Positions 9,291-60,287 of a stretch of DNA of 64,000 bases are shown here, piece by piece. The DNA comes from Selaginella moellendorffii (lineage: Eukaryota > Plantae > Lycopodiophyta): the NCBI RefSeq assembly GCF_000143415.4, contig NW_003314279.1, forward strand, positions 1,742,493 to 1,806,492, written 5' to 3'. Position 1 is the stretch's first letter. Each line of letters begins with the position of its first letter. A program made the translations under genes and the position numbers. The notes under the pieces were generated by a model. The model had not been told where the DNA came from. It did no database searches and was given only the letters and a program-made list of their open reading frames with translations.

Positions 9291-9448
9291 AACAACCCTA
9301 ACACCACAACCCAGCCACTTAATACTCTCTCCACCTTCCACCACTAAGATGCCCCAACCATGTGGCTAGAGTGAGGTTCCAATGAGCTACCCACACTTGA
9401 TAGCTCGGGGGAGGTAGATGTAAGCTCTTGAGTTTGAAGGGGGACCCT

Positions 9449-11809
9449 ATTCCAGTTGTTTGGTACCAAGTTGAAGTTTAGTACAGCTTACCATCCTCAA
9501 ACCGATGGGCAGACCGAACGCATGAATGCTCAAGTTGAGGATTATTTGCGGTACTATGTCGCGGCGGACCAACGCGACTGGGTTGAGCATTTGGATACGG
9601 CAGAAATATGTTATAACAACACATTTCATAGTGCTATAGGCTGTTCTCCATGGGAGATATTGCAAGGGAATGCTCGTGGGGTTCCTCAACAGATCGTTGT
9701 CCCGAAACCAATGACCGAAGTGTTGGTCCCAGCCGTGGAAACTTATGTGGAGCAGCTACGCCAAGGTTGGTCTAAAGCTACCGAGGCGATGGGCAAAGCT
9801 CAGGATAGGTATCGACATGATAAGGATCAGCATCGTCGGGATGTATCCTATCTAGTGGGAGATCAGGTGTGGCTATCTTCCCGAAACTTGAACATCAAAG
9901 GTTCTTTGTCTCGGAAGCTCTTCCCGAGATATGTTGGACCCTATCGGGTGTTGGCACAAGTTGGTGATGTATCCTATAAGTTGGATCTTCCGGATGAGTT
10001 GTCCCATGTACATGATGTGTTTCATGTCAGTTTATTGGCACCATATCGTGTTAATGCGGATCGCTCTATGGACATTCGTCCCCCTCCGGAAGTTGTGGAT
10101 GGTGATATGGAGTATGAGGTCGAGGCGATTCTCTTGTTCTCTTGCTCGTGGTGGTCGTTCCAAGGAATATTTAGTTAAGTGGAAAGGTTACCCGACTTGT
10201 GAATCAACTTGGGAACCTCTTAGTAATCTTACCCATGCTCGTGAGCTTGTCACGGAGTATGAGAATTGTAATAAAGACTAGCTTTTGTAATAAATCTTGC
10301 AAATTAATAAAGTAAAATATTTCTATCACTCAAGTGTCGTTTCTCTCGATCAATTGTACTTGGGTCAGTTTTGGCAGGTTGACTTCGGCACTTCGGTGCC
10401 TGGGTCCAATCCATAACCACGGGGATACCTATTCTAGACTGATCACAAGTCCCCGCCTCTCTCTTGATGACTCCTTTTCAAAACAAAAAAAAAAGGGGCG
10501 TGGTCGTGTAAACAACTTAATCTGCCAGTTTATAATAGTTGTCTAAATCTTCCCGACGGGGTTGATTTCTTGCTCAGGGGCAGTTGGGCCTCTGGCCTTC
10601 TCCCTATATCCCTGCGGGCAGGGATGTATCATTCCTTTGTAAGCTGAGTGGTACTCAGAGCAGCAAGGGTGGCTAACTCCGTTGGTCATTTCCTTGTCGG
10701 CGACGGCCGGAGGGTGTCTGAGTCTTAACGTCTTTGGACGTAGAGGAGAGGTCATTCCATAACTCATTTAAGTCGGTGTGTTTCCCACATAGTGTGCTTT
10801 CCGTTAACTTTCAGAGTTGTTTCCTTGACGGTTTGCTAGACTCGGGTATGCATCGACGAGGACGTCGATCTTCTCCAAGGGGGGGAGAGTGTCGCGAATG
10901 TGACTTCGGGTATCGAAAGATACTTGTCGGCTAGTCCTTATGGACACTCTTTCCTTACTGCCATGACGGCAGGAGGTCGGTACAGTTGGTTCCCTTTATC
11001 GTTCCCACTTGAGCTAGTTGAGAAACTGGTCAATGACCGTGCACTTAAATTGGATAAACATAAGGTAGGAACCCTATGTGTTTCTTGCTGAGCATACTCG
11101 GCCTGGTTTGAGAAACTCGTATCATTGGCTTGCACTTGCTGGTATCAAGAACCCCCGTGATATTGCGACTAGTCCCTCAATATTCACTAGATGATAGCTT
11201 ACCGTGTTTGCCAAACACCCTCGCTATCACGCCTTTTGTGTTGGTCTCATTTTGGTCCCAAATGCTATTTATGGAAAGTGTCTAGATTAGCTCATTTGGC
11301 ATATCTACGGAATGTAGAGATCGGCCTGAACACAATGGTGTTTGTCCCGTGTCCAAATTCGCAATCTAAGGACATTCCATACTTAATAAGTTTCGGACTT
11401 GTCCTAGAGACTAACTCCTGGTACTAAGGGAGGCTTGGGGTGAAAGCCCAAAGCGTATGTCCCTCAAGGGGGGGGGGGGGCTATGGGGGGTTCCAAATGT
11501 ATAGTAGGGATAGTGGTTGGAATGCATGTCTGACCACCTGAGACATTAGTTTGGCTCCCGCTGGGCTGTGTCGCTCCTTGTTCTGCGTCCGGCTTGGGTC
11601 TAAGCCCAAGCTCCACGCTGCTCTAGTCAGTGGAGTACCCTCCTTCTCGCGTTAGGCCACCGGTATGCCAAAATTGTGCCAGACTCCGTCTGACACCATT
11701 TTGCGTGCAGGTGCTGGATACGGGGAGCTGGTGCTCGTGGGATTGTACCGGACCCTCGTTTCGTAGCGCAACGGGCTTGGAGTTCGGCTCCAAATTCAAG
11801 TGCGCTACA
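9449..11809 (+). mobile_element. 5'-truncated Ty3/gypsy chromovirus: integrase C-half, chromodomain, 3'UTR, PPT and 3' LTR (autonomous relative of family B)
   Basis: ORF 9456-10178 has STAYHPQTDGQTER...RYVGPY...VFHVSLL...EYEVEAIL. After a frameshift, EYLVKWKGYPTCESTWEP (chromodomain) ends at 10281. PPT AAGGGGGGGAGAG precedes the LTR TGTCGCG at 10890, which ends GCGCTACA at 11809. Confidence 0.9.
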
Positions 11810-13603: not shown

Positions 13604-14958
13604 CTGCTTTTGGTGTAGATTTTGTCTCCCAAATGGACATGTTTGGGTCCAGTGACCTTGCAAATGCATGGGTACATTTTGACCATATGGAACATGTATC
13701 AAGTTGGACAACCATAGGAGCTCATGTGTTTGATCCAAGATAATTTTTATTCTTATTATATTGAAATGGTTGTAATATTTGTGTTATCACAGGCTATATT
13801 GTAACTTGACAGTTGCAACAATAGAGTTTAAAGTACAAGACCAAACAGCCCAAGAAATATTTTGGAAGTCCCTCACCGACATTGTAGTAAAGTAGACTAG
13901 TAAGCCTACAAACTTTCACGATTTCATGGTAGATGGGGCTAGTGCAAACTAGAATAGTAACTAAGTAGCTTTTGGGAATGGTCAGCCATTGGAAGGTTAA
14001 ACATTACTATCTTAGTTTCAATCAATATTTAAGGAGTTGTACAAATAATGGCAGGTTTCACCCTCTGAAGAAGAAAGAAGTATAAAGCAAAAGCAAATGA
14101 GATTGGAATATGGTGGTGTGATGATGGTCATATGGACATAAGTTTTCTACCACAACTTGAGTTGTGGTTAAGGTGGTGGGAAGTTAGGATGTTCTAGTGC
14201 GGACATCACTCTTTTCAAGTTGGTTTCTATTTTTTATTCTCATTTTATTGCTTGTTAATATTACTTTTTCTATTAGGATCAACCACTTGAGGACTTCACA
14301 TACACCCCAACTGTGAATCTCTCTAAAAGTGAGCACTAGAGCTAGCATTCCTTTAAGGCAAAAAAAGGGAAGATAAGTCTATATAAATCCTGTCTATCAA
14401 ATTTGATATACACTATAGAGCAATCTTCAAAAGTGTTAACACTCGGGGAAGAAATATATGTGGGAACAAGGCCTTTTGTTAAAATGTTACATGATAGGAT
14501 GAAAAAATTAACTCCACCTGCCCAAACAATGGCAATTACAATTGAGGAAGTGGTCCACAACACATCTATGGAGTACACACCCTGGGCTTTTATTAGTGAT
14601 ATGAAGACTATCTACTCAAAACATCATTTTTTCTTTGCTAGTGAAGATGTTGGCATGGATGTTAGAGCAAAAACCTCTCATAAGCCTGATATTGAATACT
14701 ATTCTACTCTAAGACAACACCTTTGGATCGAGCCACTTCAAATGGGTGATGGAGAGAGTGCATCACAACAAGTTGCAATCGCTTATCAATGGGTTTATTG
14801 CTGTCTAATTGAATTCAAATAGTTATTTTGTCTATACTAGTTTATGATATTTTATGTTGCCTTTGAAGTGTTACCTTTCTATTAGACAAAATATAATGAT
14901 ATGAGTTTTATATTGGGTCTTATGAAGGTGAGTTGAAAAATGATTACTGTAATCTAGA

Positions 14959-15152
14959 TGTAAACTCCTGAGTTTGGACTTCTCAAGAGGTCACCCAGCC
15001 CAGTACTATGCAAACCCAAGGACACTTAACTCAAAGTATCCCAAAACCCTTAACCAATTGGAAAAGGAGATGCACTCTTGTTCATGGGACTTTTCCCTCT
15101 ATATTTGAACCCTATGGATCGTCTCTTGAGTTGTTCCCTTTGGTTGCTTATA
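14959..15152 (-). mobile_element. Cassandra solo LTR
   Basis: 194 bp reverse complement of the Cassandra LTR including the 5S-like core. Perfect TSD CTAGA (14954-14958 / 15153-15157). Confidence 0.92.
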
Positions 15153-15249
15153 CTAGAGCTGAAGCAATGGGCAATCAACAATATAAGATGTGTAGGGATG
15201 ATTTCAAAGGGCAAGTGTTAAGTCTGGATTGATGGTGACAAGTTTGCTT

Positions 15250-15755
15250 CTATTCCAACCCCATGTTTCTATGAGGAACAAAAGTAAGTAAGATTTTTGA
15301 GATGGTGTTGGCTATATTATTGCAACACTAATGCCAACCATATAAAGCGGCTTGAAGACACTATACTGACTAAACCTAATGCAATACCTAAAAAATGGCT
15401 GGTTGCTAATAGGGTTGCACTCACCTTAGATGAGATTGAAAACTTGCTTTCAATCTTGAGAGAAGAGTTGGAGACATGAGTGACAAAACTAGAACTGTTC
15501 CCATAGAGATGCACAAAAGGCCAACAAGAAAAGGTAAGGTAATTAAATTTATTGATACTACCTCCAAGTAGAAGTAGCGTAAAATATACTTGGCTCAAAT
15601 GCTTGAGTGTGAGATTCTCTCCACGAAGTACATCACTACACTTGAAAATGAGTACATGGTCAAAATAGAAGGTGAAGAGTACACAATTGCCATTCAAGAC
15701 TTCCCTTCTTACACATATCCAAACTTTACAAAACGTGAGGAATATGAGAAGGCAT
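15250..15755 (+). pseudogene. Possible decayed SWIM-zinc-finger gene fragment (transposon-like)
   Basis: YMVKIEGEEYTIAIQDFPSYTYPNF near 15655-15730 resembles a SWIM start (Y.V.I...PSCTCPDF) if both TGY codons mutated to TAY. It is cut by an LTR at ~15757. Confidence 0.3.
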
Positions 15756-15756
15756 A

Positions 15757-16815
15757 TGTGTGAGAGACAAAATCCCTAGGCCCCAAAGTGGAGCCGGAAG
15801 GGGGCCACATGGTAGTGGCCAAAGCGAAAGCCAAACGAGCATAACACATTTGGACTAAAAGCTTTGGTTAATTGAGAAACGGGTCTTCATGTGTGCACTT
15901 GGATAGAAGAGTATAAGAACTAAATTCCTAAATGTTATTAGTCAAATATAATTGACTTGGTTAGAGAAACTCATTTATTGGCTTGCTAGTGTTGGGAACC
16001 CCTATAATATTGAGCTTGGTCCCTTAATATTCACTAAATGATAGCTTACCATGTCGACCAAGACATTTTCACTATCATGCCCCTTATGTCGGTTCCATTT
16101 GGTCTCATTAGCTATTTATGGAAAGTGTCTAGATTTGTTAATTTAGCATATCTATGGAATATAGAAATTGTCCTAAACACAATGGTGGTTGTCCTATATC
16201 TAAATTCACAATCTAGCACCATTTTATATTTAATAAGTTTCAAATTTGTCCAACCCAAAGTGTATGGCCTATGGGGGTTCTAAATGTATAGTAGGGATAG
16301 TAGGGTAGGTTAGGCATGGCCAACTAACCTAAGGTATAGTATAACTCTTGCTTGCATGCTTATCTTTGCATTTGTCTTGAGTCTAAGCTCAAGTTCCATA
16401 CTATGTTAGCCAGTGAAGTACCCATATTCTAGCATTATACCACCAATATATTGAAATAGTGCCAAACTTTATTTGGCTTTGTTTATGTGTTGGCCTTGGA
16501 ATTGGGATGCTAAATGCTCTAGGACTGTTCCTATGTCACTCCTACTCCTGTCCATTCACTCCTTGGGCTGTATGCTCGAGAATTGTTTCATGCTCCAATT
16601 CCATCACTCCTTGGCTCTATGTTTAAAAATTTGGCTTTGTTCTTTCATTTAATGGCCCAAGGTTTTGAAACTTAGTTTCCACTCCGCTGTCCTCGGATAT
16701 GTGGTATATGTCACGTGGCATGTGACACATGGCATATGGAGGGTTTAGGTTCCACTTCATGGTTATCCTATAATAAATCATCATAGGATAAAGGGTGAAA
16801 ACCATATGAGCTACA
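15757..16815 (+). mobile_element. Family B 5' LTR (variant U3). Its interior continues in pieces at 16816-17006, 22327-23075, 25697-26363 and 46100-47172
   Basis: Ends GAGCTACA at 16815, followed by PBS TGGTATCAAAG. The body is homologous to LTRs 27727 and 37716, and the interior pieces are collinear with 32719-34860. The start position is approximate. Confidence 0.75.
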
Positions 16816-18146
16816 TTTGGTATCAAAGTATGAGTATCAACAAGTACTATTTAATGAGATTGAGCAATGAGTTTCATTGCATATGTAGAGATGTAAACAA
16901 TGATTCAAGTGGGTACATGTTTGTTTGCTATAACTTCACATTCATTTATTTTTGGTTACCTTTTCATACTAGATAGTATAAGCTTGTGCTTAGGCTCATA
17001 AGATGGTGTAAGGAACCAACTCCTCGAGGTGTCGTAGGCTAAAGGATCCCTAAAAGCATGACTGAAATGATAAAAAGTTTATCGGATGAGATCGAGTCCA
17101 AAATCGAGTCCGAGACTAACTCTGAGACCGAGTTCGAGACCTAGTCTAAATCAAGTCTAAGATCGACTCCGAGACCGAGTTCCAGACCAAGTCCGAGACT
17201 GAGTTTGAGACCCAAGTTTGAGATTCAAGATAGGGTCCGAGACCGAGTCTAAGATCAAGTCTGAGACAAAGTCCGAGGTTGGGTCTGAGATTGAGTCTAA
17301 GATCAAGTTTGAGACTAAGTTCGAGACTGAGTTCGAGACCGAGTCCGTGGTCGAATTTGAGATCGAGTCTAAATACTAATATAGGTCGTGGGGTGAAAGC
17401 CCAAAGCATGTGTCTCCTTGGGGGGGGGGGGCATAGAGGGTTCCAAAAATATAATAGGGATAGTGAGGTCCAAAGACCAGACTTGAAAGAACTCTTTAGT
17501 AGTGTTTCCAAACTGACTTAAGGTTGAAATTGGGGCTTAGGGACCTTGAGTGAGAGTGAGTATGGACTAGCGTGATGTTGGAGGGACTAGTTTTGAAGGA
17601 ACTCTTCAGTGGTGCTTCTAAACTGACTTGAGGTTAAAATTGAGGCTTAGGGGCCTTAGGTGGGAGTGAGCATGGACTGTAGAGAGTTCTAAAAATATGT
17701 TCATTTAATGGCCCAAGGTTTTGAAACTTAGTTTCCACTCTGCTGTCCTTGGATATGTGGTATATGTCACATGGCATGTGACACATGGCATATGGAGGGT
17801 TTAGGTTCCGCTTCATGGTTATCCTATAATAAATCATCATAGGATAAAAGGTGAAAACCATATGTGCTACATTTGGTATCAAAGTATGAGTCTCAACAAG
17901 TACTATCTAATGAGATTGGGCAATGAGTCTTATTGCATATGTAGAGATGTAAACAATGATTCGAGTGGGTATATGTTTGTTTGCTATAACTTTATATTCA
18001 TTTATTGGGTATTGATTTTGGTTACCTTTTCATACTAGATAATATAAGCTTGTGCTTAGGCTCATAGGATGGTGTAAGGAACTCATAGGCTAAAGGATCC
18101 CCAAAAGCATGACCGAAATGATAAAGAGTTTATCATATGAGACCGA

Positions 18147-18319
18147 TATAAGCTTCTGAATTTGGACTTCCTGGGAGGGCACCCAAGGACACTTAACCCC
18201 AAATATCCCAAGACCCTTAACCGATTGGAAAAGGGGGTGCACTCTTGTTCATGGGCCCTTTCCCTCTATATTTGAACCTCATGGATTGTCTTTTGAGTCG
18301 TTCTCTTTGGTTGCTTACA
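18147..18319 (-). mobile_element. Cassandra solo LTR with a small internal deletion, inserted in a family A LTR
   Basis: Perfect TSD ACCGA (18142-18146 / 18320-18324). It lacks the segment between two ACCCA repeats of the 5S core. Confidence 0.9.
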
Positions 18320-20137
18320 ACCGAGTCCATGATCAAGTCCAAAATTGACTCTAAAACCGAGTTCAAGACTAAGTCCGAGATCGAGTCCAAGATTGAGTCT
18401 GAGACCGAGTTCAAGACTGAGTCTAAGATCGGGTTTGAGACCGAGTCCGAGATTGAGTTTGAGGTAGAGTCCAAGGTCTTGTCCGAGATTGAGTCTGAGA
18501 TTGAGTCCGAGACCAAAGTCTGAGGTTGAGTCTGAGATTGAGTCCGAGATTGAGTCCGTGACTGAGTTCGAATACTAATATAGGTCATGGGGTGAAAGCC
18601 CAAAGTGTGTGTCTTTTGTGGCCAGCAAGCAAGTACATGGGGGAGTCAAGTGAAATGGGAAAAACCCACTGATAAAAAAGTCAAGTCTGCTAGTAGCGTG
18701 GGAAATAACATATGCTTTAATTGCAGTGAAGCAAGACATTTTTCGTGGGAATGTCCCTACCTGAAGAAGGCTAGAGTCAATATGGCCATTAAGTTGGGTG
18801 AAATTTAAATTGAGGTATGTGATTTAGTCCCTAGCTCAAAATTACTTATTACATTAGCAACTTTGGTAGAGAGTTGTTCACAACATCTACTAGCCCTCTG
18901 AGGGAAGCTTGGAGGTAGCTTTGTTAAGATCATTATTTACATGAGTGTGTTAAATAATTTTGTGGCTATAGACATAGTTCAACAAGCTGAACTAATAGTG
19001 CAGCTGCTAGGTGAACCAAGGACTATAGGTTTGTTCAAGGTAGCTAAAGCACCGATGATGTACTTTAACAAACAAGAGTCGAAATAAGGACATGGAAAGT
19101 AGACATGGATTTCACTGTGTTGAATATGGCAGGATTTGACGTGATCTTTGGGATGGATTAGTTCAATCTGTTTGTGGTAGTTTTGCATGGACAAGGTAGG
19201 AACATGTGGTACTGTCGAATGCTTGAGGAGAATAATCCAGGGTGGAGGCTTAGGATCTAAAAGTAGGTAAAGTAAGGCCAAAAACTCCTACTTAAACTTA
19301 GTGTTCGAGAGGACAACTCACTAAAGGAACCAATGTAGCATTTTTGTGTTTACTCTCGAAGGGGAGTGGAACAGAAGAAATATTGTTAGTGATCTAGTGG
19401 GTGTTAAACCAATTTTGAGATACTATGCTAGAGGAGTTATCAACTAGGTTACCCCCCACACGACTGATTGATTGAGTTAGTTGAGGGTGCTAAGACAATG
19501 GTTCGTCCCCCCTATTGGTTGAATGAAAAGGAATTTGAGGAGCTCGAAAGAGAAGACAAGTTGTGCAGAATACAATGGACCCATCTATTATAAACAGAGG
19601 AAGATATATGTTCCACAAGAGGAGTTAAGGAAAGTAGTCTTAAAAGAGTGTTATTGTGGACCTCTTGTGGGACACAGTGGAGTGCTCAAGATGATGGGTT
19701 TACTCAAGAGAAAGTATCACTAACCAGACATAGCTAAGGATGTCTAGGACTATGTAAAGATATGTCTAACATATTACCAAGTCAAAACCATGACTAATGC
19801 TAGTGGGTCTTGTTACAAAGCCTCCCAATTCCAGATCGTCCATGGAAATGTCTTACAATGGACTTCATCACAGGACTCCCCCCAAGTAAGGGGTTTAATG
19901 CAATATTTATGGTGATGGACCAGTTTTCGAAGATGGCACATTTCATACTCACCACAATGAAAGTGGATGCGGAAGGTGTGGTAAAGCTGTTCTTTGAACA
20001 AGTGGTTTGAGTGTGGGGAATGCTAGAAGAAATTTTCTCAGATCAAAATAAGATTTTCACCAGTAGGTTCAGGAGAACTCTCTTAGAACAGTATTGCACC
20101 AAGTTGAAATTCAGCATAGTTTATCACCCACAAACAA

Positions 20138-20185
20138 GTATTGGGTATTAATTCCAAGTTTGATGGCAATACCACTTCTCAACAA
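20138..20185 (+). other. Intron-like insert 1 in the integrase of the family A copy at 17007
   Basis: YHPQT A|GTATTGGG...CTTCTCAACAA|AT GGA CAA ACG. 48 nt long; the acceptor has decayed from AG to AA. Confidence 0.7.
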
Positions 20186-20601
20186 ATGGACAAACGAAAA
20201 GGGTGAATATCAGCTAGAGGATTATTGTGATACTATGTTTCTGGAAACCAGACTAATTAGGTAAGTCATTTGGAATTTGCAAAAATATGCTATAATAACT
20301 CACCACATTTAAGTATTGGGGTGAGTCCATGGGAAGTTATCAATGGACGAGCTATTGAAGGTTTTGTGGAACTTAGCGCGGCCAAATATCATGGAAAGTT
20401 ACTTGCAATGGAGGCATTCATGGCGGAAATACTCAACATTTGAAATCTAGTGAGGGATTCCTTGGAATGGGCTCAATAAAGGCAAAATAAATATATAAAC
20501 TAAAAGCGCTAGAATGTAGAGTTCCAATCTAGGAATAAGGTATGGCTGAACACCAAGAGCCTAAGGCTACCAAGAGGGATCAACCGAAAGTTGACCCAAA
20601 G

Positions 20602-20652
20602 GTAAAATGAATGTATTCCTAAAAATGAATTGATATTAAGTTCTTTAAGCAA
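20602..20652 (+). other. Intron-like insert 2 in the integrase of the family A copy at 17007
   Basis: CAA AG|GTAAAATG...TTAAGCAA|G TTC GTG GGG. 51 nt long; the acceptor has decayed from CAG to CAA. Confidence 0.72.
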
Positions 20653-21928
20653 GTTCGTGGGGCTTTATGAGATTGAGGCTCGAATTGGTAAAGTGGCTTA
20701 TTGCCTCCGGCTTCTTTGGGAGATGGGGAAGATGCACTATGTGTTCCACGTGAACTTACTCAAGCTATACTTTGATTATCCACTTCACAAGGACCAAATA
20801 AAACCTTTACTTGAGGTGATTCAAGGGGAAAAGGAATACAAAGTCGAGGCCATCCTCAATGCACACAAGAGCGAATGACAAGGATGTGAGGTGAGGGAGT
20901 TCTATATGAAGTGGAAAGGATTTCTACACTGTGAAGCAACATGGGAACTGAAGGAAAACTTAGCAAATGCGTAAGATCTAGTGGAGGAATTTTTGCAAGG
21001 TCAAACTCTATGTACTTAGACAAAATTTAATTAAAGAATCAATTTGAGAAATTGAGCAATGTCATATGTTAGGACCCAAAGGCGTGCTGAAAGTAAGCTA
21101 ATTAGCATGCTAGCTAGATTGACTAGGTGAAAAAAACTACACCCGACTCTTTGCAGGGATGTTGAATTCATAAATGTATTGTATGAAGGTTTTGTTCGAG
21201 TCCCAACCCTCTAGTAAAGCAAGGCTGGGTTCAAGTCCCAACTCTATACTAGGGTGTGGTGAGGTGAGGGGTATAGAGACACTTATATTCTATTGTCATG
21301 GGCTCTTGACTAGGGAGGCTAATTTAGGCATACTGCTAAGTGGAGGGGATGCCTCTGGAGACATGGTCAACAAATCGTAGAATTAAAAAGAGACATTCAA
21401 TGTGGGCGTCAAACTTCTTATATAGGTGAGGGAGTTGTAAGGAACCAACTCCCCGAGGTGTTGTAGGCTAAAGGATCCCCGAAAGCACGACCAAAATGAT
21501 AAAAAGTTTATCGGATGAGACCGAGTCCAAAATCAAGTCTGAGACTGACTTAGAGACTGAGTTCGAGACCAAGTCCGAGATCTGAGATCAGGTCTAAGAC
21601 CGAGTCCGAGGTCGGGTCCACGATCGAGCCTGGGATCAAGTCTGAGATCGAGTTTGAGCCCGAGTCTAAGGTCAAGTCCAAGATTGAGTCCAAGACTGAG
21701 TCCAAATACTGTGAGGTACAGGAACCAGTCTTGAAGAAACTCTTCAGTAGTGCTTCCAAACTGACTTGAAGTTGAAACTAAGATTTAGGGGCCTTAGGTA
21801 GGAGTGAACATAGACTTGGGTGGTGCCGAAGGTGCCACCCGAGGAAGTGATTCAGAGTAGCTGCCACTCCTGAAAGGGACATTGACTACAGTGCTCCCAG
21901 CTTATGTAGAGTGACGCCCCAATTAAGT

Positions 21929-22028
21929 NNNNNNNNNNNNNNNNNNNNNNNNNNNNNNNNNNNNNNNNNNNNNNNNNNNNNNNNNNNNNNNNNNNNNNNN
22001 NNNNNNNNNNNNNNNNNNNNNNNNNNNN
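21929..22028. other. Assembly gap (100 N)
   Basis: Run of N. Confidence 1.
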
Positions 22029-23083
22029 GGATGTTAGAAACCTGAAGGCTTGGTGTGCTTAGTTACTTGTGCTTGTGGGGAGTGTAGCCAAACCTTAAGT
22101 TTAATGTAACCTGGGAGGTGGATTATGAAAGAATTTGAGAATCTGTGGATGGATGGTTAATACTTCATTATTTGCACAGTGAGTTGCTGAAACTAAATAG
22201 GACAAAGTAGGAACTAGAACAATAGGTAGGAACTTTGGCAAGGGAATTTAATTAAGGCTAAGGTTGTGGCTGGATAGATGAAGTAAGCTAGAAAATTAAA
22301 AAGAAAAATTTATAACTTAGAGATGGATGTGAAATGTACCATTTGCACAAGTCACTTAGGCTTATGAGTGAGGCACATTAGCAACTCAAGGTTACACTTT
22401 GAGTTGGCAAAATTAATGTTAGCATATCGGTGGTTACATGAGTTATTCCATGTTACCATGGGTAAAAGTAAACTTTCCATGGGTTACTATAAGTGGCAAA
22501 TAAGTTGGTTTGTAGCTATTTAGCATGACACTAGTGGATCCTTCCTAAGCATGATTATAAGTGGATCAATAAAGACTGTAGGGATTAGCCTGTTGATTCA
22601 AGTAATCATTACCATGCTCTCTCATAAACTTTTTATAGACTGAGGTAGTGCTAATGCAAGTTTGAGGTTTAGTCAAGTTGAGTCCGAAAAGAGAGTTGTC
22701 AGAGACGAAGGATCAAACATGTAAATCATTTTCTCTTCTTTGAGATATGATTTGGCAATGAAGTGTGATTTTATTACTTGTGTTCACATTATGGAATCAA
22801 GAGTCCCTACCTTGATGTATACTGATTATGATAGTTTTACAAGTGGTGAGTCATGGAATGGATAGTGGTGAAGTGCTAAATTATTTTATCTAGACTTGTT
22901 ATTAAAAATTTGAGTTACAATGCTCATTTTTTTTCTACGGAACCTTGCTATTGCTCCTTGGATAACTTAGTGTTAGATTAGTTATAAGTTTGTTCAAAAA
23001 GAGAGTGGCATAAACTTGTCCATATTGTGAACGAAGTTAGCGGTGTTGAGTGTTGCAAATCTCTATTGATAGGGTATATACTA

Positions 23084-25688
23084 CATAATTACCAATTAAC
23101 AGGTTTAGGTGAAAATTTACCATTAGTAACGCATTCGTAACATTGCATTCATAACACACATTCAGGTTCAAGTCACGTTCAAAATGAACTCTTTTAAAGA
23201 TTCTAAATCTTTCCATGAATTTAAATTAAGTTTACCATTAAGCTAGGTTTATCATCTATTATGCATTCACGTAGAGGAGGCAAGAGGAAAAAACCTTTAT
23301 GGGAGCTTCATGATTGAAGGTCAAGCATATGCAAATAGCAAAGGAAGCAAACAATAGATCTGCCACTATTGCAACAAAGGACTCGGTGGTAGCTGAAAAG
23401 GCTAAAAGCACACCTTGGGCATGTGCAAGGAGAGGGAATCCAACCTTGTGAAGCTGTTGCTCACTTGCTGAAACTAGAGTTCAAGATGATGTTTGAGAAG
23501 GACTATGGTTTGGTAGTTGCCCAGATAGGGCAATCAGCACAAGTGACAGCAAATGCCAGTGCTTCAACATTTGCCTAGACTGGGCAACCATCACAACAAG
23601 CTCGAATGATACCTAGTGCCAGTGCTACCCAGGGTGATTCTTCTAGCATAGCTAGTATGGCTGGAGCATCTAGTAGCTTTGTGCAATGTACAGCTGGCTC
23701 TACTGGTGTTCATGTTTCACATCTTATGCCTACGAGTGCCCAATTGACAACAAGTGCCCAGAGAGGCCATTTGCAGCAAAAAACAATACAAAGCTCATTC
23801 TTAAATGAGAGATATAAAGCTTGTGATGTAGCTCTTTGATGCTTCGCCTATGCTAATGCATTGCCTTTCAACCTTGTTCGATCGCTGTTCTTGAAAGATT
23901 TGCTTCATGTGGTTGGAGTGGTTGGAACGGGATATGCTTCAGTCATGATGAAGTATGAAGCCTTGCATATGTAACATCTGAATAATGAGTGCATGAGCTT
24001 GCATGATCAAATGCAGCTACTGAGAGACAGATGGAAGAGTATGGTTGCACTATTATCTCTAATGGCTGGCAGTGCGGAAGAGGGAAAGCCATTATCAACT
24101 TCATTGCTGCCAGTATTCATGGCTGTGTCTTCCTGACACAAAGAGTGGGAAGTGGCTGTATGATCAACTAAAGCCTGTCCTTAAAGATGTTGGACCAGAA
24201 AATGTTGTGTAGTTTGTTACTGACAATACTGGGAACTGCGTCAAAATGGGAAAGTATGTGACTGAAGACTTTCCCCATATCGTGTATGGACGATGTGTTT
24301 GTCATGTTCTAGATTTGCTGCTAGAAGACATTGGGAAGTTGGACTGGATCACTCCCCTAGTGAGAGGTTGTCAAATGCTTGTCTCATTCTTCTACCGGAG
24401 TCCCAAGCTTCTTGCTGCTTTTCAACAGCTTGCACCTAGAGATCTTGTTCATCCTACTTCTACTCGTTTTGCTTATAACTTTCTAGTTATAAGCTAATTT
24501 CTTGAAGAAAAGATGATACAATGCATGCAGCAATTTGTGGTGAGTGATGACTGGTATGCACAATGGAATAAAGTTCCAAGAGCTGATGAAGTTGCTACTT
24601 TAATCAAGAACTCAGGTTTTTGGATGGAATGTCAGCAATTGCTTGTGCTAATGGGTCCTATTCTCAAAGTACTACGAGTTTCTAATAAGGCAGGAGCAAC
24701 TATGGGACTTGTCTTTGAGCTGATGGATCGCATGCAAGAAAGCTTGAAGAAACTGGCTACTGAAGGTGTCATTGATTGTGATAGAGTCTCAACCATCTTG
24801 AACTTCATCTACAACAACTCTGAGGTAGAGGCTGGGCAGGACGTTGAGGCTGAGGATGAGCTACTCGAGGATGGCCTGATGGAAGGGTAGTCCGCATCTT
24901 CAAGTAAGAATTGCTGGGTGATGATGCACAACAAGCTGCAGAGTGTTGGTTGTTGTTTGCATCCTCTATGGATGGATGATCCTGAATTTGCTGAGGCAAA
25001 GAGAGATTTCCATGACTATGTTGAACTCATTGCTCCCAGTGACTTGGAAAAGCAGAGGAAGCTGACTTTGCAGTATATACGATTCCAGGAACATGTATCA
25101 AGTGATATGTGCCAGGCATTGGCTAGAGATCGAGCTATGCACTTGAAGGGTGTACAGTGGTGGAGTGAATATAGTTCTCAACTTCCTGAGTTACAGCAGC
25201 TGGCACTACGAGTTCTTAGTCGGCTTGTGTCTGTCTCTACTGCAGAGAGAAATTAGAGTGTGTATGACATTGTTCAGTCAAAGAGAAGGATGTGTCTCAA
25301 GCCTGAGAACAACCAATTTGAGGCTGATGAGAACTATAGAAGACTGAGGCATGCAGCTTATGGAAGTTGATATTGATGACATCAACTTGGAAGCTCAATG
25401 CAAAGACTGCTTGACATATAGGAGCACATGGAGGAATTTGAGGAGTTCTTAGACTCCATGGAGGAAGAGGAATGACAAAGCTCAGCTATGATTTGGTGTG
25501 TTTCTTTTGTTTTGTGTTTGGTTTGGAGTGGATTTCTTTGTTCAAGTTTCAAGTTTTAAAGATTTCTTTCCACTTTATTTAGGGTTTTTCAAGTTCGGTT
25601 GGTCTGAAACCAAATATCGCATTTGGATGAAAATTTGCTGTTCGTAACATATACATATGCAACATTCCAAAGTTTGGTAGTAACTATG
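23084..25688 (+). mobile_element. hAT DNA transposon with transposase pseudogene (~23260-25475), inserted in the family B interior
   Basis: BED finger (ICHYCNK...HLG...IQPC); DUF659-type FVTDN..NC and CVCHVLDLLLEDIGK; TRFAYNF; hAT dimerisation WWSEY...PELQQLALRVLS...STAERN. Short TIRs CATAATTAC / GTAACTATG. The TSD is degenerate, and host sequence resumes on both sides. Confidence 0.88.
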
Positions 25689-27726
25689 GTATAACATTTA
25701 TGTTGCATTTTGTCGGATCGACTTAACACTTGATACTTATATAAACTTTTGAAGTAATGACAAAGGTGTTGCTCGTGATGTTGCTCAATTGATGATCAAG
25801 TTATTGTGATACTTATATCATATCAAATATGTTTACAAATTTGCTTAGTTAAACAATAATCAACCCTAAAGTGGTTGATAGTGAAGCTAATTTACTTGCA
25901 AATAATAACATTGAAGTAGCTTTGACTTAATTCTAATCTTAAATTGGTACTTTGGTTTTTTAAGAATTGCTTATTAAGGTTTTGGAAAGGGTTATAACAT
26001 TCACATGCTATGGCTTGTTAGTGAATCTATTAGCACTTGGAGTAGATTATTGAATGGAAAAGGTGTGTAACTAAGTTGCTAACACTTGTGCTAATGGAGG
26101 TGGAATTAATTATATTTAGTGATGAAGAACTTTTGTTAAAACTTGATTTTCTATATCATTTTTTTTATTAGTGTTTTGGCATCATATTAGATTTTGAATG
26201 TGATTGACGAAGAATGTTAGTGCAATGTGAATATCCAAAGATATGGTTTTCATGATTGGGTCTTGGGTATTCATTTGCATTTTATGGATATCAGTGTCGG
26301 ATGTAGAATATATGGGCATGATGTTTAATATTTAAACATGTTGTTGGATCATGAGAACCTATGTGTAAGTTACAAAGTTTTCCTTTCCAATTTGCAAGCT
26401 TACCTTGTCTATCCGATTAACACTTCCTTGGCTTTAATTAAGTTCCCTTGCCAAGGTTCCCACCTATTATGCTAACTCCTATTTAGTCTTACTTGGTTTC
26501 AACTACTCTTCTAAATCCCAAGCCTTAGGTGCAATATTTGCTTCAGGACACCAGGGAGAAACACCGTGGCTTAATGGCTCGGTATGGGTACCTTTACTCC
26601 CCCACTTCCATCCCAAAGGGAACGCCCAGGCCCCTAGGAAAGGCAAGGACCAATGAGCTACAAAGTACTCAAGTGGGGCACCACTTCATATGAGTAGGGA
26701 GCACCATAGTCGGTTTCCCTTTTGGGAGTAGGAGCTACTCTTGAGCACTTCCTTGGGTGGCCCCTCCAACACCACCTAAGTCTATGCTCACACCCACCCA
26801 AGGCCCTTAAACCTTAGTCTCAACCTCAAGTCAGTTTAGAAGCACCACTGGAGAATTCCTTCAAGACTAGTTCCTAAACCTCACTATCCCTACTATACTT
26901 TTGGAACCCCATGCAGGCCCCCCCCCCAGAGACACACAGTTTGTGCTTTCACCCCATGACCTATATTAGTATTTAAATTCAGTCTTGGTCTCAGACTCGA
27001 TCTTGGACTTGATCTTGGATATGACCTCGAACTCAGTCTCAAACTCGATCTCCAACTCGATATTGGACCCAATCTTGGACTCTATCTCGGACTCGACCTC
27101 TAACTCAATCTCAGACCCAATCTCGGATTTCGGACTCAATCTCAAATTCGGTCTTCGACTTGGTCTCGAACTCAATCTCAAAGTTGCTCTTGGACTCAAT
27201 CTTTGACTCGGTCCCATCCAATGAACTCTTTATCATTTTGGTCATGTTTTTGGGAATCCTTTAGCATACGACACCTCGGGGAGTTGGTTCCTTACAACTC
27301 CACCACCCATAGAAGAAGTTCAATGCCCACATTGAACATCTCTTTTTAATCCTATGACTAATTGACTATGTCTCCAAGGGCATCCCCCCACTTAACAGTG
27401 TGCCTAAGTTAGCCTCCCCGGCCAAGAGCCCATGACAATAGAATATAGGTGTCTCTATGCCCCTCACTTCACCACACCTTAGTATGGGGCTAGGACTTCA
27501 ACCCAGCCTTGCTTTACTAGGGGGTTGGGACTCAAACCCAACCTCCATAGAATATGTCTAGGGATTTGACATCCCCGTAGGGAGTTGGGCATAGTTTCCT
27601 ATACCTAGTCAACTTAGCTAAACCATGCTAATTAGTTTACCTTTGGCACACCTTTGGGTCCCAACATATGCCATTGCTTAATTTCACAAATTGATACTTT
27701 AATTGAACTTTGCATAAGTACATAAA

Positions 27727-51693: not shown

Positions 51694-54600
51694 AGTAGGG
51701 AACTAACTCCCCAAGGTGTCATAATCTAAAGGATCCTTGAAAGCATAATCGAATTGATATAGAGTTCATTAGATGGGACCGATTCTGAGATTGAGTCCAA
51801 GACCGACTCTGAGAGCGAGTTTGAGATAGAGTCCAAGATCAAGTCCGAGGCTAACTCCGATATTGAGTTCGAGACCGAGTCAAAGACAGAGTTCGAAACC
51901 AAGTTTGAGATCCGAGATCGGGTCTGAGACCGAGTCCGAGGTCGAGTCCAAAATGGGGTCTGAGATCAAGCCCTAAACTAAGTCTAAGGTTAGGTCCGAG
52001 ATCAAGTCTGAGGTCCTCACCCTTCCTAAGGGATTAGGCCTTCCCTTTGGGATGGAAATGGGGGAGTAAAAGTACCCATATTGGGCCATTATGCCATCAT
52101 GTTTCCCCCTAGTATCCTGAAGCAAATGTTGCACCCAAGGCTTGGGATTTAGAGGGTCTATGATCAAGTCTTATTATAACAAAGGATGTTAGGAACCTGG
52201 AGGCTTGGTGTGCTTGGCTACTTATGCCTGCAGGGAGTGTAACCGAACCTTAAGTCTAGTGTAACTCTGGGAGGGGGATTGGGAAAGATTTGGGGAATTT
52301 GTGGATGGATGGCTAACGCTCCATTGCTCATGCAGTGAGTAGCTAAAACCAAATAGGACCCAGTAGGAGTTGGTACAATAGGCGAGAACCTTGGCAAGGG
52401 AACTTAACTAAGGCCAAAGCAGTGTTGGTTGGATAGACAAAGTAAGCTAGCAAATTAAAAAGGAAAAATTTGTGGCTTACAATTTGGTATCAAAGCCGTT
52501 TCCTCAGTTTTAGCGAAGGATAAAGGTAAATTGTTGGGAGATGGAAAAAGCAAGGCCTAAAAAAATCCAAGTGAAGACAAAACTTCCTCCAGAGTTGGAG
52601 CCTCTAGTCAAACAAGAACCTATAGATGAGGAATCCTTGCATGAGGAGGACTCCAGTGAGGAAACTTCCAAACAGGAATCTAGTGGTGAGGTTTGGTCGT
52701 CCAAGGCTTGATTGGACATTCTAGAAGGACAACTAGCACAAACCAATGTCCTGCTAGAATCCTCGTACGCAAACTAAAGTATGATGAGAAGCGGAAGAAA
52801 AAGCAAAAGACTGTAAATGCTGGCAGTGCAGAAGACATGGACTCTTTGGTGAGGACTGAGGTGGAACCGAACAAAGTCCAACAAACCGAAGTGGAATCAA
52901 TCCCCCAGGCAATTCCCAAGTACAAACCAAAGCCCTCACCAATCTTCAAGGGAGTGAACAATTATAAAGTGGTGGAGGATTGGTTTTATAATATGGAGGA
53001 TTACTTCCGAGCGTTGCGGTTACCAAGCTCGGAGAAGGTCCCATGTGCAAAACTATACTTGGTAGATAATGCTAAGTCTTGGTGAAGAACAACATAGGCC
53101 AACAAAGAACCGATCTGTGTAACCTACGTTCTGCCAAATGCTACTTTACACCTAAGGGATGAGCTGAGTAGACTGAAGTAAGCGGGAACCATTCAAAAGT
53201 ATGCGAATGCGTTTATGGCAAAGAGGATTTTTGTCACAAACATAGGAGACATAGATGCATTCCATACCTTCATATCAAGCTTGCAAACCTAGACTCGAGG
53301 TGAGGTGATGCGTTGGAACCCGACCAACTACAAGGAAGCGTTGGATGTAGCTATCAAGGTGCATTTCAATGATAACCTGTGAAAGGGGAACACAACACCA
53401 TATTTAGCAAAGGGGCTAAACCAAGGGGGATATATGGAAAAGGGAAATTCAAAAGGAGTTTCTTTAAGAATGAGTCTTCAAGGTTCCAAAAAGATAGATC
53501 CAATGGCCAACAAGAAAGTACGTGGGGGAGTCAAACAAAAAAGGACAAACCCATGGATAAGAAAGTTAAGTCTACTAGTAATGTGGGAAACAACATATAC
53601 TTCAACTACGGTGAAGCGGGACACTTTTTGAAGGAACATCCCTACTTGAAAAAGGCCAGAGCCAATATAACCATTAAGTCTGGTGAAATCCAAATTGAGG
53701 TATGTGATCCAGTCTCTGGCTCAAAATTACTCATTACACGAGCAACTTTGGTAGAGAGTTGGTACAATAGGTGAAAACCTTGGCAAGGGAACTTAACTAA
53801 GACCAAAGTAGTGTTGGTCAGATAGACAAAGTAAGCTAGCAAATTGAAAAGGAAAACTTTGTGGCTTACAATTTCATATCAAAGCCGTTTCCTCAACTTT
53901 AGTGAAGGATAAAGGTAAATTGTTGGGAGATGGAAAAAGCAGGACGTAAAAAAATCCAGGTGGAGACAAAACTTCCTCTAGAGTTGGAGCCTATGGTCAA
54001 ACAAGAACCTATAGATGAGGAATCCTTGCATGAGGAAGACTCCAGTGAGGAAACTTCCAAACAGGAATTTGGTGGTGAGGTTTGGTCATCCAAGGCTCGA
54101 TTGGACGTTCTAGAAGGACAACTAGCATAGACCAATACCCTACTAGAAACCTCATACGCAAGCTAAAGTATGATGAGAAGCAAGAGAAAAAGCAAAAGAC
54201 TGTAAATGCTGACAGTGCAGAAGGCATGGAATCTTTGATGGGGACTGAGGCGGAACTGAACAAAGTCCAATAAACCGAAGTGGAATCAATCCCCTAGGCA
54301 ATTCCCAAGTACAAACCAAAGCCCCCACCGGTCTTCAAGGGAGTAAACGATTATAAAGTGGTGGAGGATTGGTTTTATAATATGGAGGATTACTTCTGAG
54401 CGTTGCGGTTACCAAGCTCAGAGAAAGTCCCATGTGCAAAACCATACTTGGTAGATAATGCTAAGTTTTGGTGGAGAATAACATAGGCCAACGAAGGACC
54501 GGTGGCCACTTGGGAAATGATGAAAGTGAGGATCTGTGCAACTTACGTTTTGCCGAATGCTACTTTACACCTAAAGGATGAGCTGAGTAGGCTGAAGTAG

Positions 54601-57600
54601 GCGGGAACCATTCAAGAGTATGTGAATGCATTCATGGCAAAGAGGATTTTTGTCACAGACATGGGAGACATGGATGCATTCCATGCCTTCATATCTTGCT
54701 TGCAAACCTGAGCTCAAGTTGAGGTGATGCATTAGAACCCGACCAACTATAAGGAAGCGTTAGATGCAACTATCAAGGTGCATTTCAATGATAACCTACA
54801 AAATGGGAACACAACGGGGTTGAGGTCCACATTTAGCAAAGGGGCCAAACCAAGGGGGATATATGGAAAAGGGAAATTCAAAAGGAATTTCTCTAATAAT
54901 GAGTCTTCGAGGTTCCAAAAAGGTATATCCAATGGTCAATAAGCAAGTACGTGGGGGAGTCAAGCGAAAAGGGACAAAACCATGGATAAGAAAGTTAAGT
55001 CTACTATTAGTGTAGGAAACAACATATGCTTCAACTACGGTGAAGCGGGACACTTTTTGAGGGAATGTCCCTACCCGAAAAAGGTCAAAGCCAATATAGC
55101 CATTAAGTCGGGTAAAATCCAAATTGAGTTATGTGATCTAGTCTTTAGCTCAAAGTTACTTATTACATGAGCAACTTTGGTGGAGAGTCATTCACGACAT
55201 CTACTAGCCCTTCGAGGGAAACTCGAATGTAGCTTTGTTAAAATCTTTATTGACACAGGTGCTTCGGATAATTTTGTGGCTGCAGACATAATTTGGCAAG
55301 CCTGACTAATGGTGCAGCAGCTAGGTGAACTAAGGACTATAAAGTGCATTCAAAGTAGCCAAAGCACCGATGAGGTACTTCGACAAGCAAGAATCAAAGT
55401 AGGGACCTGGAAAGTAGAAATGGATTTCACCTTGTTGGACATGGCAGGATTTGATATAATTTTCGGAATGGATTGGTTCAATCAATTCATAGTATCCCTA
55501 CATAGACAAAGTAGAAACCTTGTGGTACTAGCAAATGCCCGGGGAGAATAATCTAGGGTGGAGACCCAAGATCTAAAGGTAGGGCAATATAAGGCTAAAG
55601 ACTCCTACTTGAACCTGGTGTCCATAAAAGGATAACTCACTAAAAGAACTAAGGTAGCACTTTTGTGCTTACTCTCGGTGAGGAGTGACAAAAAAACGGG
55701 AACAGAAGAAGTACCTTTAGTGATCTAGCGGGTGTTGGACCAATTCCAAGAAACCATGCCAAAGGAGCTACCAGCAGAGTTACCCCCCACACAATCGATA
55801 GAATATAAAATTGAGCTAGTAGAAGGTGCTAAGGTGGTGGTTCATCCCCCCGATCATTTGAATGAAATGGAACTCGAGGAGCTCAAGCACCAACTAGAAG
55901 AGTTGGTGGATAAAGGGTATGTTAAGTTGAGCAAGTTGCCATATAGGCATTGGTATTATTTTTGAAAAAGAAATATGGATCTATAAGTATATGCATAGAC
56001 TATCAATTACTCAACAAGTATACAAAGAAGAACAAATACCCTTTACCAAGGATTGAGGACTTGTTCAATAAGTTAGGAAATGCAAAATACTTCTCGAGGA
56101 TTAACCTAAAGTCAGGATATTACTAAATCAGGGAAGTAGAGGAAGATGTCGAGAAGACAACCTGTTGAACAAGGTATGAGAGCTTTGTGTTTTTGGTGAT
56201 GCCTTTTAGGCTGTGCAATGCGCCAGTAACATTTTCGGCGCTAATGAACCACATATTTATACCTTATCTACATCATTTCGTGGTTGTCTATATTGAGAAC
56301 ATCCTAATTTATAGCGAGACGCTAAAGGAGTATACTGAACACTTAACAAAGGTGTTTGAGAAACTAGGGGAATACAAGTTATATGCTAAAGAGAGCAAAT
56401 GTGACTTTGCTCAACAAAAGGTAAAGTTTCTCAGGCATGTGGTGGGCAAGGACGAGTTTAAGGTGGACCTTGAAAAGGTCCAAGCAATCTAGGAATGGGA
56501 GCAATCATCGAATGTACACGAGTTGAGGGTGTTCTTGGGGCTATGCAACTATTACTGAAAGTTTATCAAACATTATTCGAGAGTAGTTGTGCCTTTAACG
56601 GACCAAACAAGAAAAAGGGAAAATAGTATGGACAGCGGAATGCGAGGTGACATTTGTCCACCTCAAAGGGAAGTTGAGGAAGACTCCCGTGTTAGCATTA
56701 CCAAACTTTGGTAAAGACTTTGAGGTAGAAATGGACACTTCAAACTTTGCATTGGGTGTAGTTTTGAAACAAGACAACCATTTAATGATGTTCTTCTCGA
56801 AGAAGTTGGACAGGGCTTAGCAAAAGTGGCCTACCCATGAGAAGTAATTATTTGCCATGGTCAAGGCACTCAAGAAGTGGCGACATTACCTTGGGAGGCA
56901 GTTCAAAATTTATATAGATAATATAGCAACAAAACACTTCTTGTCGCAACCCAACCTAAGAGGAAAACAAGGTCGGTGGGCCAATACTTTGGCCGAGTTC
57001 AATTGCGAGATTCTGTATAAACTTGGAAAGAGCAACATTGTGGTAGATGCTCTAAGTCGAAAGGCAAGCTTGAAGTTGGTGATATCTAGCACGACAGCAA
57101 CCTTTTGGGATGATGTGCGAGCAACATATGAAAATGATGGTTTTGCACAAGAAGTGTTACTAAGGAACCAAAAGGCGTGAAATGCTCACTAAAGAGGTGA
57201 GTTGCCAACGGAATATAAAACAAATTATGTGGAACACAATACACTCATCTATTACAAAAAAACAAAGGTGTAAGTTCCAAAAAAGGAACTAAAGAAGGTA
57301 GCTTTAAAAGAGTGTCATAATAGACCTCTTGTGGGACATGGTAGAATGCCCAAGACAATGGGCTTACTCAAGAGGAAATATCACTGGCTAAACATGGCTA
57401 AGGACGTCCAAAACTATGTAAAGATATGTCTAATATGTCAGTAGGTCAAAGTCATGACTAAGGCTAGTGGGGGCTTGTTACAAAGCATTCCCATTCCAGA
57501 TCGACCGTGGAAATGTCTTACAATGGGACTTCCCCGAAACGAGGGGTTTGATGTGATATTCGTGGTGGTGGACCAATTTTCGAAGATGGCACATTTCATA

Positions 57601-57787
57601 CCCACAATGGAAGTAAATGCAAAAGGCATGGTGAAGCTGTTCTTTAAACAAGTGGTTTGAGTGCGAGGAAGGCCAAAAGAGATTATCTCAGATCGAAATA
57701 AAATCTTCACTATTAGGTTCTAGAGAACTCTCCTAAAACAATATTGCACCAAGTTGAAATTCAGCATAACTTATCACCCATATATAA

Positions 57788-57834
57788 GTATTGGGTATTA
57801 AGTCAAGTTTGATGGCAATAACACTTCTTGATAG
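57788..57834 (+). other. Putative spliceosomal intron 1 (47 nt, GT..AG) in the integrase core
   Basis: TAT CAC CCA TAT ATA A|GTATTGGGTATTAA...CACTTCTTGATAG|AT GGA CAA ATG GAA AGG GTG AAT. Removal gives YHPYINGQMERVN, the HPQT(D/N)GQTER motif. Confidence 0.75.
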
Positions 57835-58252
57835 ATGGACAAATGGAAAGGGTGAATAGACAACTAAAGGATTATCTACGATGCTATGTCTCTGGAGATC
57901 AAACCGATTGGGTAAATCATTTAGGACTTGCGGAAATGTGCTATAACAACTCACCACATTCGAGTATTGGGGTGAGTCCATAGGAAGTCATTAATGGGCA
58001 AGTTATTGAAGGTCCTGTAGAACTCGGCATGGCCAAGTATCATGGGGAGTTACCCATGGTGAAGGCATTCACGGCGAAAAGACTCAACATCTAGAATTTA
58101 GTGAGGGATTCCTTAGAACCGGCTTAACAAAGGTAAACTAAGTATGCAAACTAGAAGCGTCAGGATGTAAAGTTCCAACCTGGGGAGAAGGTGTGGCTGA
58201 ACACCAAGAACCTAAGGCTACCAAGTGGGATCAGCTAGCAGTTGACCCAAAG

Positions 58253-58304
58253 GTAAAAATGCATATATTCTTGTAAATGAATTGATCTTGAGTTCCTTAA
58301 GCAG
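58253..58304 (+). other. Putative spliceosomal intron 2 (52 nt, GT..AG) just before the integrase GPY motif
   Basis: TTG ACC CAA AG|GTAAAAATGC...GTTCCTTAAGCAG|G TTT GTA GGA CCT TAC. Removal gives LTQRFVGPY. Consensus AG|GTAA donor, GCAG|G acceptor, AT-rich body. Confidence 0.82.
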
Positions 58305-60287
58305 GTTTGTAGGACCTTACAAGATTGAGGCACAAATTGGTAAAATGGCTTACTGCCCCCAACTTCCTCAAGAGATGGGAAAGATGCACTTAATGTTCCA
58401 TGTGAATTTACTCAAATCGTATTTTGAGGATCCGCTTTGCAAGGACCAAGTAAAACCTTTACCTGAGGTTATCCAAGAGGAAGAGGAATACGAAGTCGAG
58501 GCCATCATCAATGCAAGCAAGAGCAAGTTACAAAGACGTGAAATGAGAGAGTTCTATATGAAGTGAAAAGGATTTCCACACTGCGAAGCAACATAGGAAC
58601 CGGAGGAGAACTTAGCAAACGTGTAAGACCTAGTGGAGGAATTTTTGCAAAGTAGAACTCTATATACTTATGCAAAGTTCAATTAAAGTATCAATTTATG
58701 AAATTGAGTAATGGCATATATTAGAACCCGAAGATATGCCAAAGATAAGCTAATTAGCATGGGTTAGCTAGGTCGACCAAGCGTAGTGAACTACTCCAAC
58801 TCCCGGCAAAGATGTCGAATCTGTAAATGTATTCTATAGAGGTTGGGTTTGAGTCTCAACCCCACTAGTAAAGTAAGGCTAGGTTCAAGTCCCAACCCTA
58901 TACTAGGGCATGGTGAGGTGAGGGGTATAAAGACACTTATATTCCGTTGTTATGGGCTCTTGGCCGGGGAGGATAATTTAAGCACATTGCTAAGTGGGGG
59001 GATGCCCCTAGAGACATGGTCAACAAGTCGTAGGATTAAAAAGAGATGTTCAATGTGGGCATTAAACTTCTTCTATGGGTGGTGGAGTTGTAAGGAACCA
59101 ACTCCTAGAGAAGCTTGAGTAGGTTTTGAGCTCATGAACTCATGAGTTGAGCTCACAACTTCTCAAACACAAGAAAAAAATTGGTTCGTTCTAAACCAAC
59201 ATCTTTTCATTTTTCAAATTTTGATTTAATCTATATTTCCAAGTAAATTCGACCAATAAAATACAAATATAAATATAGATCCAAACACTAAAAGTAATCT
59301 AGAAACACTTCTCAAGATTTGCAATTGTAAGGCTTGCCTGATGGATGTGATGGTCGACCTTAGGATCTTGGTTTAGTTCCTGCATAAAAATGTAATAAAT
59401 GTGCTTGTAGGCTAAATATACCTCTCCCCTGTTCTCCCTCTATGTAAAATTTAGACAAGTACAGGATGGATTTTCGTAGATTCTGATAGTGTAGCTCATA
59501 GCTTTTGACGACTCAGTCATAACAACAAACTCCTTTACCAGGCACTGATGTAATTTATCCTTGTGATTGTGCATTTCAATGCCTTTGCCAGCTTGATTTT
59601 CTCTTGTGCATCTTTTAAAATGGAAGACCTATATTGTACAGCCTTCTCATTTCTAGCTAGTCGTGTATGCCAGTCTAGTGTTGACATTGGTGGCATAGCA
59701 GTATCAATAGCAACATTTGAGGAAGTCTTCAGCTTGAAACCAGCTCTCTCCAGATTTTCAATCTCTTCTTTCAAAAGATTGTAACTTCACTCAACTGGCC
59801 ACTCCTTTGGCACAGAATCTAGCTTCGAGATAATTGAGTTATGGATCCTATTTGTATGAGAACATCAATCCCACAACAGTAAATCCAACTTGATTGGCGA
59901 CCCTTTACCCCTACTCAACAACCCCAGAAACATGGTACTACTGAAGAACTTGAACCTGAGCACACAAATGCAAGACAACTCCCAATCATTTCATAGCAAC
60001 CCACATTGCTCTTGGCACTGACTCTTTAAATTGCCTAGTTGATACGAGAAACTAGCTCACGAGCAATAATCTTCTCAACCTCTGGCACTGGATTTACTTG
60101 TATAACAATTGACACTTCCTCCACTCTATGTTCCTTAGTTCTTCTCCAATGTCATGGAACAGAATGATAGTCAAACTCTGGATGGTGAGAGTTAGAAGGA
60201 GTGATGTTAGGCCCATCAAATGTTTATTGACACTTCATACAAATTGTCATCATGTCCCCAAGTGGTTCATAACTTGATGTATAGAAG

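Follow-up and report, generated by a model that had tools for sequence, protein, structure and literature searches.

Retroelements are expected to shed introns at every replication cycle. According to the accessible portion of PMC12786077, yeast Ty elements engineered to carry a laboratory intron lose it upon transposition, the principle of a classic assay, and plant LTR elements are generally intron-free, with Ogre and EVADE as the named exceptions; intron retention therefore needs an extra step. Within a 64,000-nucleotide stretch of the Selaginella moellendorffii genome (the window), two inserts of about 50 nt lie inside the integrase gene of a Ty3/gypsy retrotransposon, which raises the question of whether they are introns and, if so, how they have stayed in its genomic copies.

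Anatomy and insertion sites of the element

The window is made up of nested, decayed transposons, and its DNA has CG at 0.40 and CAG/CTG at 0.67 of expectation, a depletion that is the pattern of land-plant methylation, and a six-frame scan of selected pieces found no host gene from which intron sizes could be taken. The insert family is represented by four pieces (copies A, B and C, and piece D), with integrase in A and B only. Copy A (17007..22321, + strand) is an internally deleted, decayed Ty3/gypsy chromovirus comprising a partial 5′ LTR, the end of gag, protease, integrase with chromodomain, and a 3′ LTR. Its last integrase exon (20653..21030, +) spans the SH3/GPY-F region and the chromodomain, whose cage positions Y, W and F are kept; PMC6317226, in the text available, reports such cage residues solely from non-seed plants, which points to a non-seed plant as the probable host. 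A polypurine tract (21424..21434, +) precedes the 3′ LTR (21436..22321, +), which contains an N gap and whose first 134 nt are 89.6% identical to the start of the 5′ LTR, which marks copy A as old. The first picture of this copy needed correcting on several points: reverse transcriptase (RT) and RNase H are missing, as is most of gag, the left junction is duplicated, and the 3′ LTR terminates in GA instead of CA.

The initial annotation gave copy A its own target-site duplication, and GATGG is indeed found on both sides (17002..17006 and 22322..22326, both +); a homologous host repeat near 32925 with a single GATGG represents the empty site. A further GATGG at 18068-18072 arose when the left junction was duplicated in tandem (16644-17095 / 17700-18146, 94.5%), an event that is younger than the insertion and leaves two GATGG-TGTAAGG junctions. 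Copy B sits elsewhere within this host repeat and, together with the empty site, this makes A and B independent insertions and not products of segmental duplication, the objection that the initial annotation had raised against its own reading.

Copy B (about 51695..59105, +) is more complete, running gag-PR-RT-RH-IN-chromodomain and then into a polypurine tract and 17 nt of 3′ LTR. Its 5′ LTR reaches 52481 and is followed by a primer-binding site of the TGGTATCA type (52483..52497, +), which we take to correspond to tRNA-Met. Pfam matches comprise Retrotrans_gag, RVP_2, RVT_1, Integrase_H2C2, rve, SH3_Tf2-1 and Chromo, several of them under the curated cut-off because the sequence is decayed, and RNase H was detected by tblastn. 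The gag-PR-RT-RH-IN order with a C-terminal chromodomain is that of a Ty3/gypsy chromovirus, and the hallmarks of an LTR element are present in A (target-site duplication, polypurine tract, LTRs) and in B (primer-binding site, polypurine tract). Over 1,918 columns of the integrase and 3′ region the two copies are 80.6% identical. In a quick RT tree (116 rows, built without a labelled Galadriel reference), B fell in an open group whose 21 rows are proteins without names and which lies away from the named seed-plant hits; relatives reached at most 57% identity in the RT search and at most 47% in a HMMER search, and sequence-cluster names were uninformative.

Several further features of the window were recorded. 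Inside copy B, the LTR end, primer-binding site and gag are tandemly duplicated (52363-53759 / 53751-55188, 88%). Copy C (from about 28521) covers the element from its LTR as far as the beginning of RT, and its gag holds a 27-nt in-frame insert at about 30390-30420 that is not in B, has no evident GT..AG ends and is probably a local duplication; piece D (26357-27724, minus strand) consists of a 3′ end and LTR. Arrays of a degenerate 12-nt unit occupy the LTRs of the family (17090-17370, 18310-18570, 21520-21710, 28590-28860 and 51760-52010) and recur on the minus strand near 13000 (12970-13370). A dispersed repeat of 100–200 nt occurs in both orientations (1765-1961, 2168-2364, 14958-15112, 18181-18278, 44492-44688 and 44893-45089), one copy of it inside copy A. 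The host repeat of copy A also received a decayed hAT transposase (23300-25300, +; DUF659 and hAT dimerisation) in which no intron was seen by eye. Another Ty3/gypsy element (40114-44500, +), which has decayed little and keeps long open reading frames for gag, RT and RNase H, has an insert-free integrase and may be Tcn1-like; fragments at 13600-15750 resemble a decayed Mutator-type transposase by eye, the tested pieces having no Pfam match.

Position and intron-like features of the inserts

In copy A, insert 1 is a phase-1 sequence of 48 nt (20138..20185, +; GT..CAA) that interrupts HPQT-D-GQTE within the codon of its Asp position, and insert 2, in phase 2 and 51 nt long (20602..20652, +; GT..CAA), falls within the Arg codon preceding FVG-Y (R-FVGPY). 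Their counterparts in copy B (57788..57834, +, 47 nt, GT..TAG; and 58253..58304, +, 52 nt, AG/GT..CAG/GT) occupy identical codon positions and differ from those of A by one 1-nt indel each; all are AT-rich. This arrangement, including the lengths of 48 and 51 nt in A and the 1-nt indels, had been described in the initial annotation and is borne out by alignment and by tblastn with an insert-free integrase of another Ty3/gypsy family (9438..10175, +; 31–39% identical over the matched parts), which left alignment gaps in A of precisely 16 and 17 residues and, in B, changed frame at the same two sites. Read through without splicing, insert 1 brings an in-frame stop a few codons before the Glu of GQTE, which we take to be the catalytic Glu of integrase, and insert 2 opens with an in-frame TAA.

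The site of insert 1 is otherwise continuous among relatives. The motif HP(Q/E)(T/S)-x-GQ runs uninterrupted in 47 matches among 120 RT hits, with Asp at x in 42 of the 47, and a looser contiguous form was found in 122 of 150 integrase hits, with Asp in 108 of the 122; among the 28 hits lacking it, 17 had context and none of these showed a 16-residue insert, while 11 had no context. The remainder of the copy B pol is collinear with three homologs and holds no comparable insert. An Ogre-type regulatory intron between gag-pro and RT was considered and set aside, PR-RT-RH of B being collinear with the same homologs.

Both inserts of copy B have GT..AG ends whose removal restores the codon. Only 21 of 7,261 windows of 47 or 52 nt in the B pol have such ends at fixed positions by chance (0.3%), and with about five sliding registers for each insert we estimate the chance of both being GT..AG at roughly 2 in 10,000. 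Both inserts of copy A end in CAA; a single transition separates either TAG or CAA from CAG. The earlier suggestion that the CAA acceptors reflect CAG>CAA decay agrees with the depletion of CAG/CTG in the window and with the TAG and CAG ends of B, and the CAA ends fit CHG decay. The inserts are richer in T than the flanking exons (33–37% against 22–27%), and YTRAY, a short and hence weak motif, lies 23–26 nt before the 3′ end in four of four inserts. Lengths of 47–52 nt are short for seed-plant introns. The inserts are not more diverged than the exons (13–18% against 17–20%), and of the seven indels between A and B, two lie inside inserts where 0.5 would be expected; this enrichment falls short of significance (p=0.09). 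The exons of copy A also contain 1-nt indels.

Family-wide evidence and alternative explanations

Contigs from three DNA runs of one sample, which may be the source of the assembly, were matched at 80% likeness; such contigs show presence and not absence, rare variants being dropped. Those matching B numbered 6,407, 7,105 and 3,185 and those matching A 1,467, 1,520 and 773, figures that are not copy numbers, and the insert family is highly repeated. Copies A and B both have an A directly before the GT of insert 1, whereas G occupies this position (20137) in 92, 73 and 91% of depth in the three runs, so that the split codon in other copies is the conserved Asp. One letter is missing at 20154 in 97–99% of depth; in the family, insert 1 is therefore 47 nt long and frameshifting. 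Insert 2 appeared with four or five A's in 17 and 24 contigs of run X1 (loose ends), a variation in length as would be seen for a length-neutral intron. The listing covers 40 of 70 rows; for the 10 A>G rows of run X1 beyond it there are 15 candidate A-versus-G places that include both acceptors (20185 and 20652), besides one explained by B.

Of the ten joints over copy A, none takes out an insert. Over copy B, among the 24 pieces listed, ten bridge insert 1 and three bridge insert 2, without any gap as long as an insert (the largest is 16); among 15 of 42 joints listed, one skips 51 nt at an offset of about 20 nt from insert 2, the letters between being unread. The bridging contigs carry the inserts, which upholds the earlier view that these are a family trait, and from the LTR anatomy and the independent sites we infer that the inserts survived reverse transcription. 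Elsewhere, the junction motif with a 35–65 nt GT..AG gap was found at no locus in viral contigs and at one in metagenome contigs, a chance match in a long importin-like open reading frame unmatched to the window; the insert-1 pattern gave none in viral contigs, and a word-index search with exon 2 gave no match.

Taken together, the sequence features make it likely that the inserts are short spliceosomal GT-AG introns gained inside a chromovirus integrase gene, and we consider it probable that they are introns which the family kept by preferential copying of its unspliced RNA. A different account, which we regard as unlikely, sees the inserts as footprints or fillers of repair that inactivated the integrase of one master copy, whose descendants then spread non-autonomously with the integrase of an insert-free relative. 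Short direct repeats do flank both inserts (AGGT at insert 2; GACAG, pieced together, at insert 1), as described for gained introns and for repair-type insertions in the available text of PMC3443670; the window contains insert-free integrases, and copy A is itself deleted and non-autonomous. Selection on the exons after the inserts is likewise short of significance between A and B: 56 of 142 differences fall at third positions (p=0.07) and 41 of 102 are synonymous (a share of 0.40 against 0.34 expected, p=0.11), alongside clear selection in gag between copies C and B (p=1e-4). Repair would, however, have to have struck twice, each time leaving GT..AG ends, which alone have the estimated chance given above, together with a branch-like motif and a precisely restored codon. 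The exons downstream, moreover, were open in the A/B ancestor, since their stops are private to each copy: A and B share an identical stop at one of 252 codons of exons 2–3, compared with 2–10 per 126–128 codons in 3′ untranslated frames, a comparison that does not give the duration of selection. Among the joints listed there is also no insert-free copy at 80% likeness or more, and the insert-free integrases of the window are those only 31–39% identical.

Somewhat less probable still is that the inserts are real introns passively retained through weak splicing, the RNA remaining mostly unspliced and being both translated and packaged, without distinct pools. The very short inserts and their non-ideal donors (GTATTG and GTAAAA) would suit such a scheme, and intron-retaining RNA dominates in EVD in the consulted part of PMC5580714. 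In so highly repeated a family, however, weak splicing should have left some insert-free copies, and the joints listed, from contigs that drop rare variants, include none.

Movement of the element as DNA, by Ginger-like cut-and-paste or segmental duplication, would have spared the introns from reverse transcription, and Ginger transposases are gypsy-like integrases with one to four introns in the accessible sections of PMC2836005; we hold this to be very improbable, given the LTRs, primer-binding site, polypurine tract, gag, PR, RT and RNase H, the differing insertion sites and the empty site, and, weakly, the greater likeness of the LTR starts within A (89.6%) than of LTRs between copies (81.8%, over different stretches). 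Assignment to the Ginger DNA transposons was set aside on the same grounds, RT, RNase H, LTRs and a primer-binding site being present. We give even less credence to the idea that introner-type mobile mini-elements inserted themselves into the retrotransposon: direct repeats are present at the flanks and introners occur in land plants (PMC12130899, in the part available), but the two inserts are mutually unrelated, lack terminal inverted repeats and a stable fold (z −0.62 to 0.59; folding and repeat scans gave nothing above chance), and match nothing else in the window, and only 0–1% of contigs continue into unlike sequence. Introners are known by many near-identical copies scattered over unrelated positions and often bearing terminal repeats, and no such copies were found within the window and contigs; an introner origin would in any case concern only how the inserts arose and is compatible with their splicing. 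Even jointly, movement as DNA and introners seem to us highly improbable.

Known systems and a proposed two-RNA model

Intron retention is already known in Ogre, BARE1, EVD and Penelope-like elements, and integrase introns are known in Ginger. One close parallel is Ogre (Ty3/gypsy, Tat; pea and Medicago): in the accessible text of PMC6317226, some of its transcripts have the intron spliced out, which permits translation of the full polyprotein, and the intron is kept in genomic copies, as we suppose for the present family. In Ogre, however, a single intron of about 274 bp separates gag-pro from RT-RH-INT, whereas here two inserts of about 50 nt lie inside a chromovirus integrase, one of them within the catalytic core. 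BARE1 and EVD/Copia share a facultative GT-AG intron retained in the genomic RNA, and separate translated and packaged RNA pools are described for BARE (PMC3735527); these are Ty1/copia elements with the intron at the gag-protease junction, and their splicing removes Pol to give Gag only, whereas here it would complete Pol. Penelope-like elements retain introns after retrotransposition (PMC8557442) but are non-LTR elements with another mode of replication and introns mostly in the 5′ UTR, and Ginger elements, with GT-AG introns in their gypsy-like integrase, are DNA transposons that move by cut-and-paste, are bounded by terminal inverted repeats and lack RT. These comparisons draw on the accessible portions of the sources.

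Plant chromoviruses with a class I chromodomain (Galadriel-like or Tcn1, of non-seed plants) resemble the family in their gag-PR-RT-RH-IN-chromodomain order, their TGGTATCA primer-binding site, 5-bp target-site duplication and aromatic cage positions, and differ in that integrase introns go unmentioned in the portions of the literature consulted. The available sections of PMC2864245, PMC5718144, PMC7998251 and PMC7730604 contain nothing on integrase introns, and a search of partly accessible literature, with subscription journals, Repbase and supplements outside its coverage, returned no LTR retrotransposon with introns inside integrase.

We lean, by a modest degree, towards a specific form of the intron reading, in which a high-copy chromovirus has two obligate integrase introns of about 50 nt, splicing gates the integrase and only unspliced RNA gives rise to new copies. 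The introns may have been gained at AG/GT-type sites, where short direct repeats flank both inserts, and one element would give rise to two RNA pools. Private breaks aside, a single frame runs from gag to insert 1. Unspliced RNA would be translated into Gag-PR-RT-RH with a dead integrase stump ending just before the catalytic Glu, and this truncated product would lower the ratio of integrase to Gag; the doubly spliced RNA would be translated into the full Gag-Pol with a working integrase. Packaging and reverse transcription of the unspliced RNA would keep the inserts in the genomic copies.

If this is true, the family would be a case in which an LTR retrotransposon depends on introns within a catalytic gene, needing two splicing events for its integrase, and would record recent intron gain at AG/GT-type sites. 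Annotation based on open reading frames would wrongly call such families dead. The element would also provide a natural experiment on the means by which messenger and genomic RNA are kept apart in a retrotransposon.
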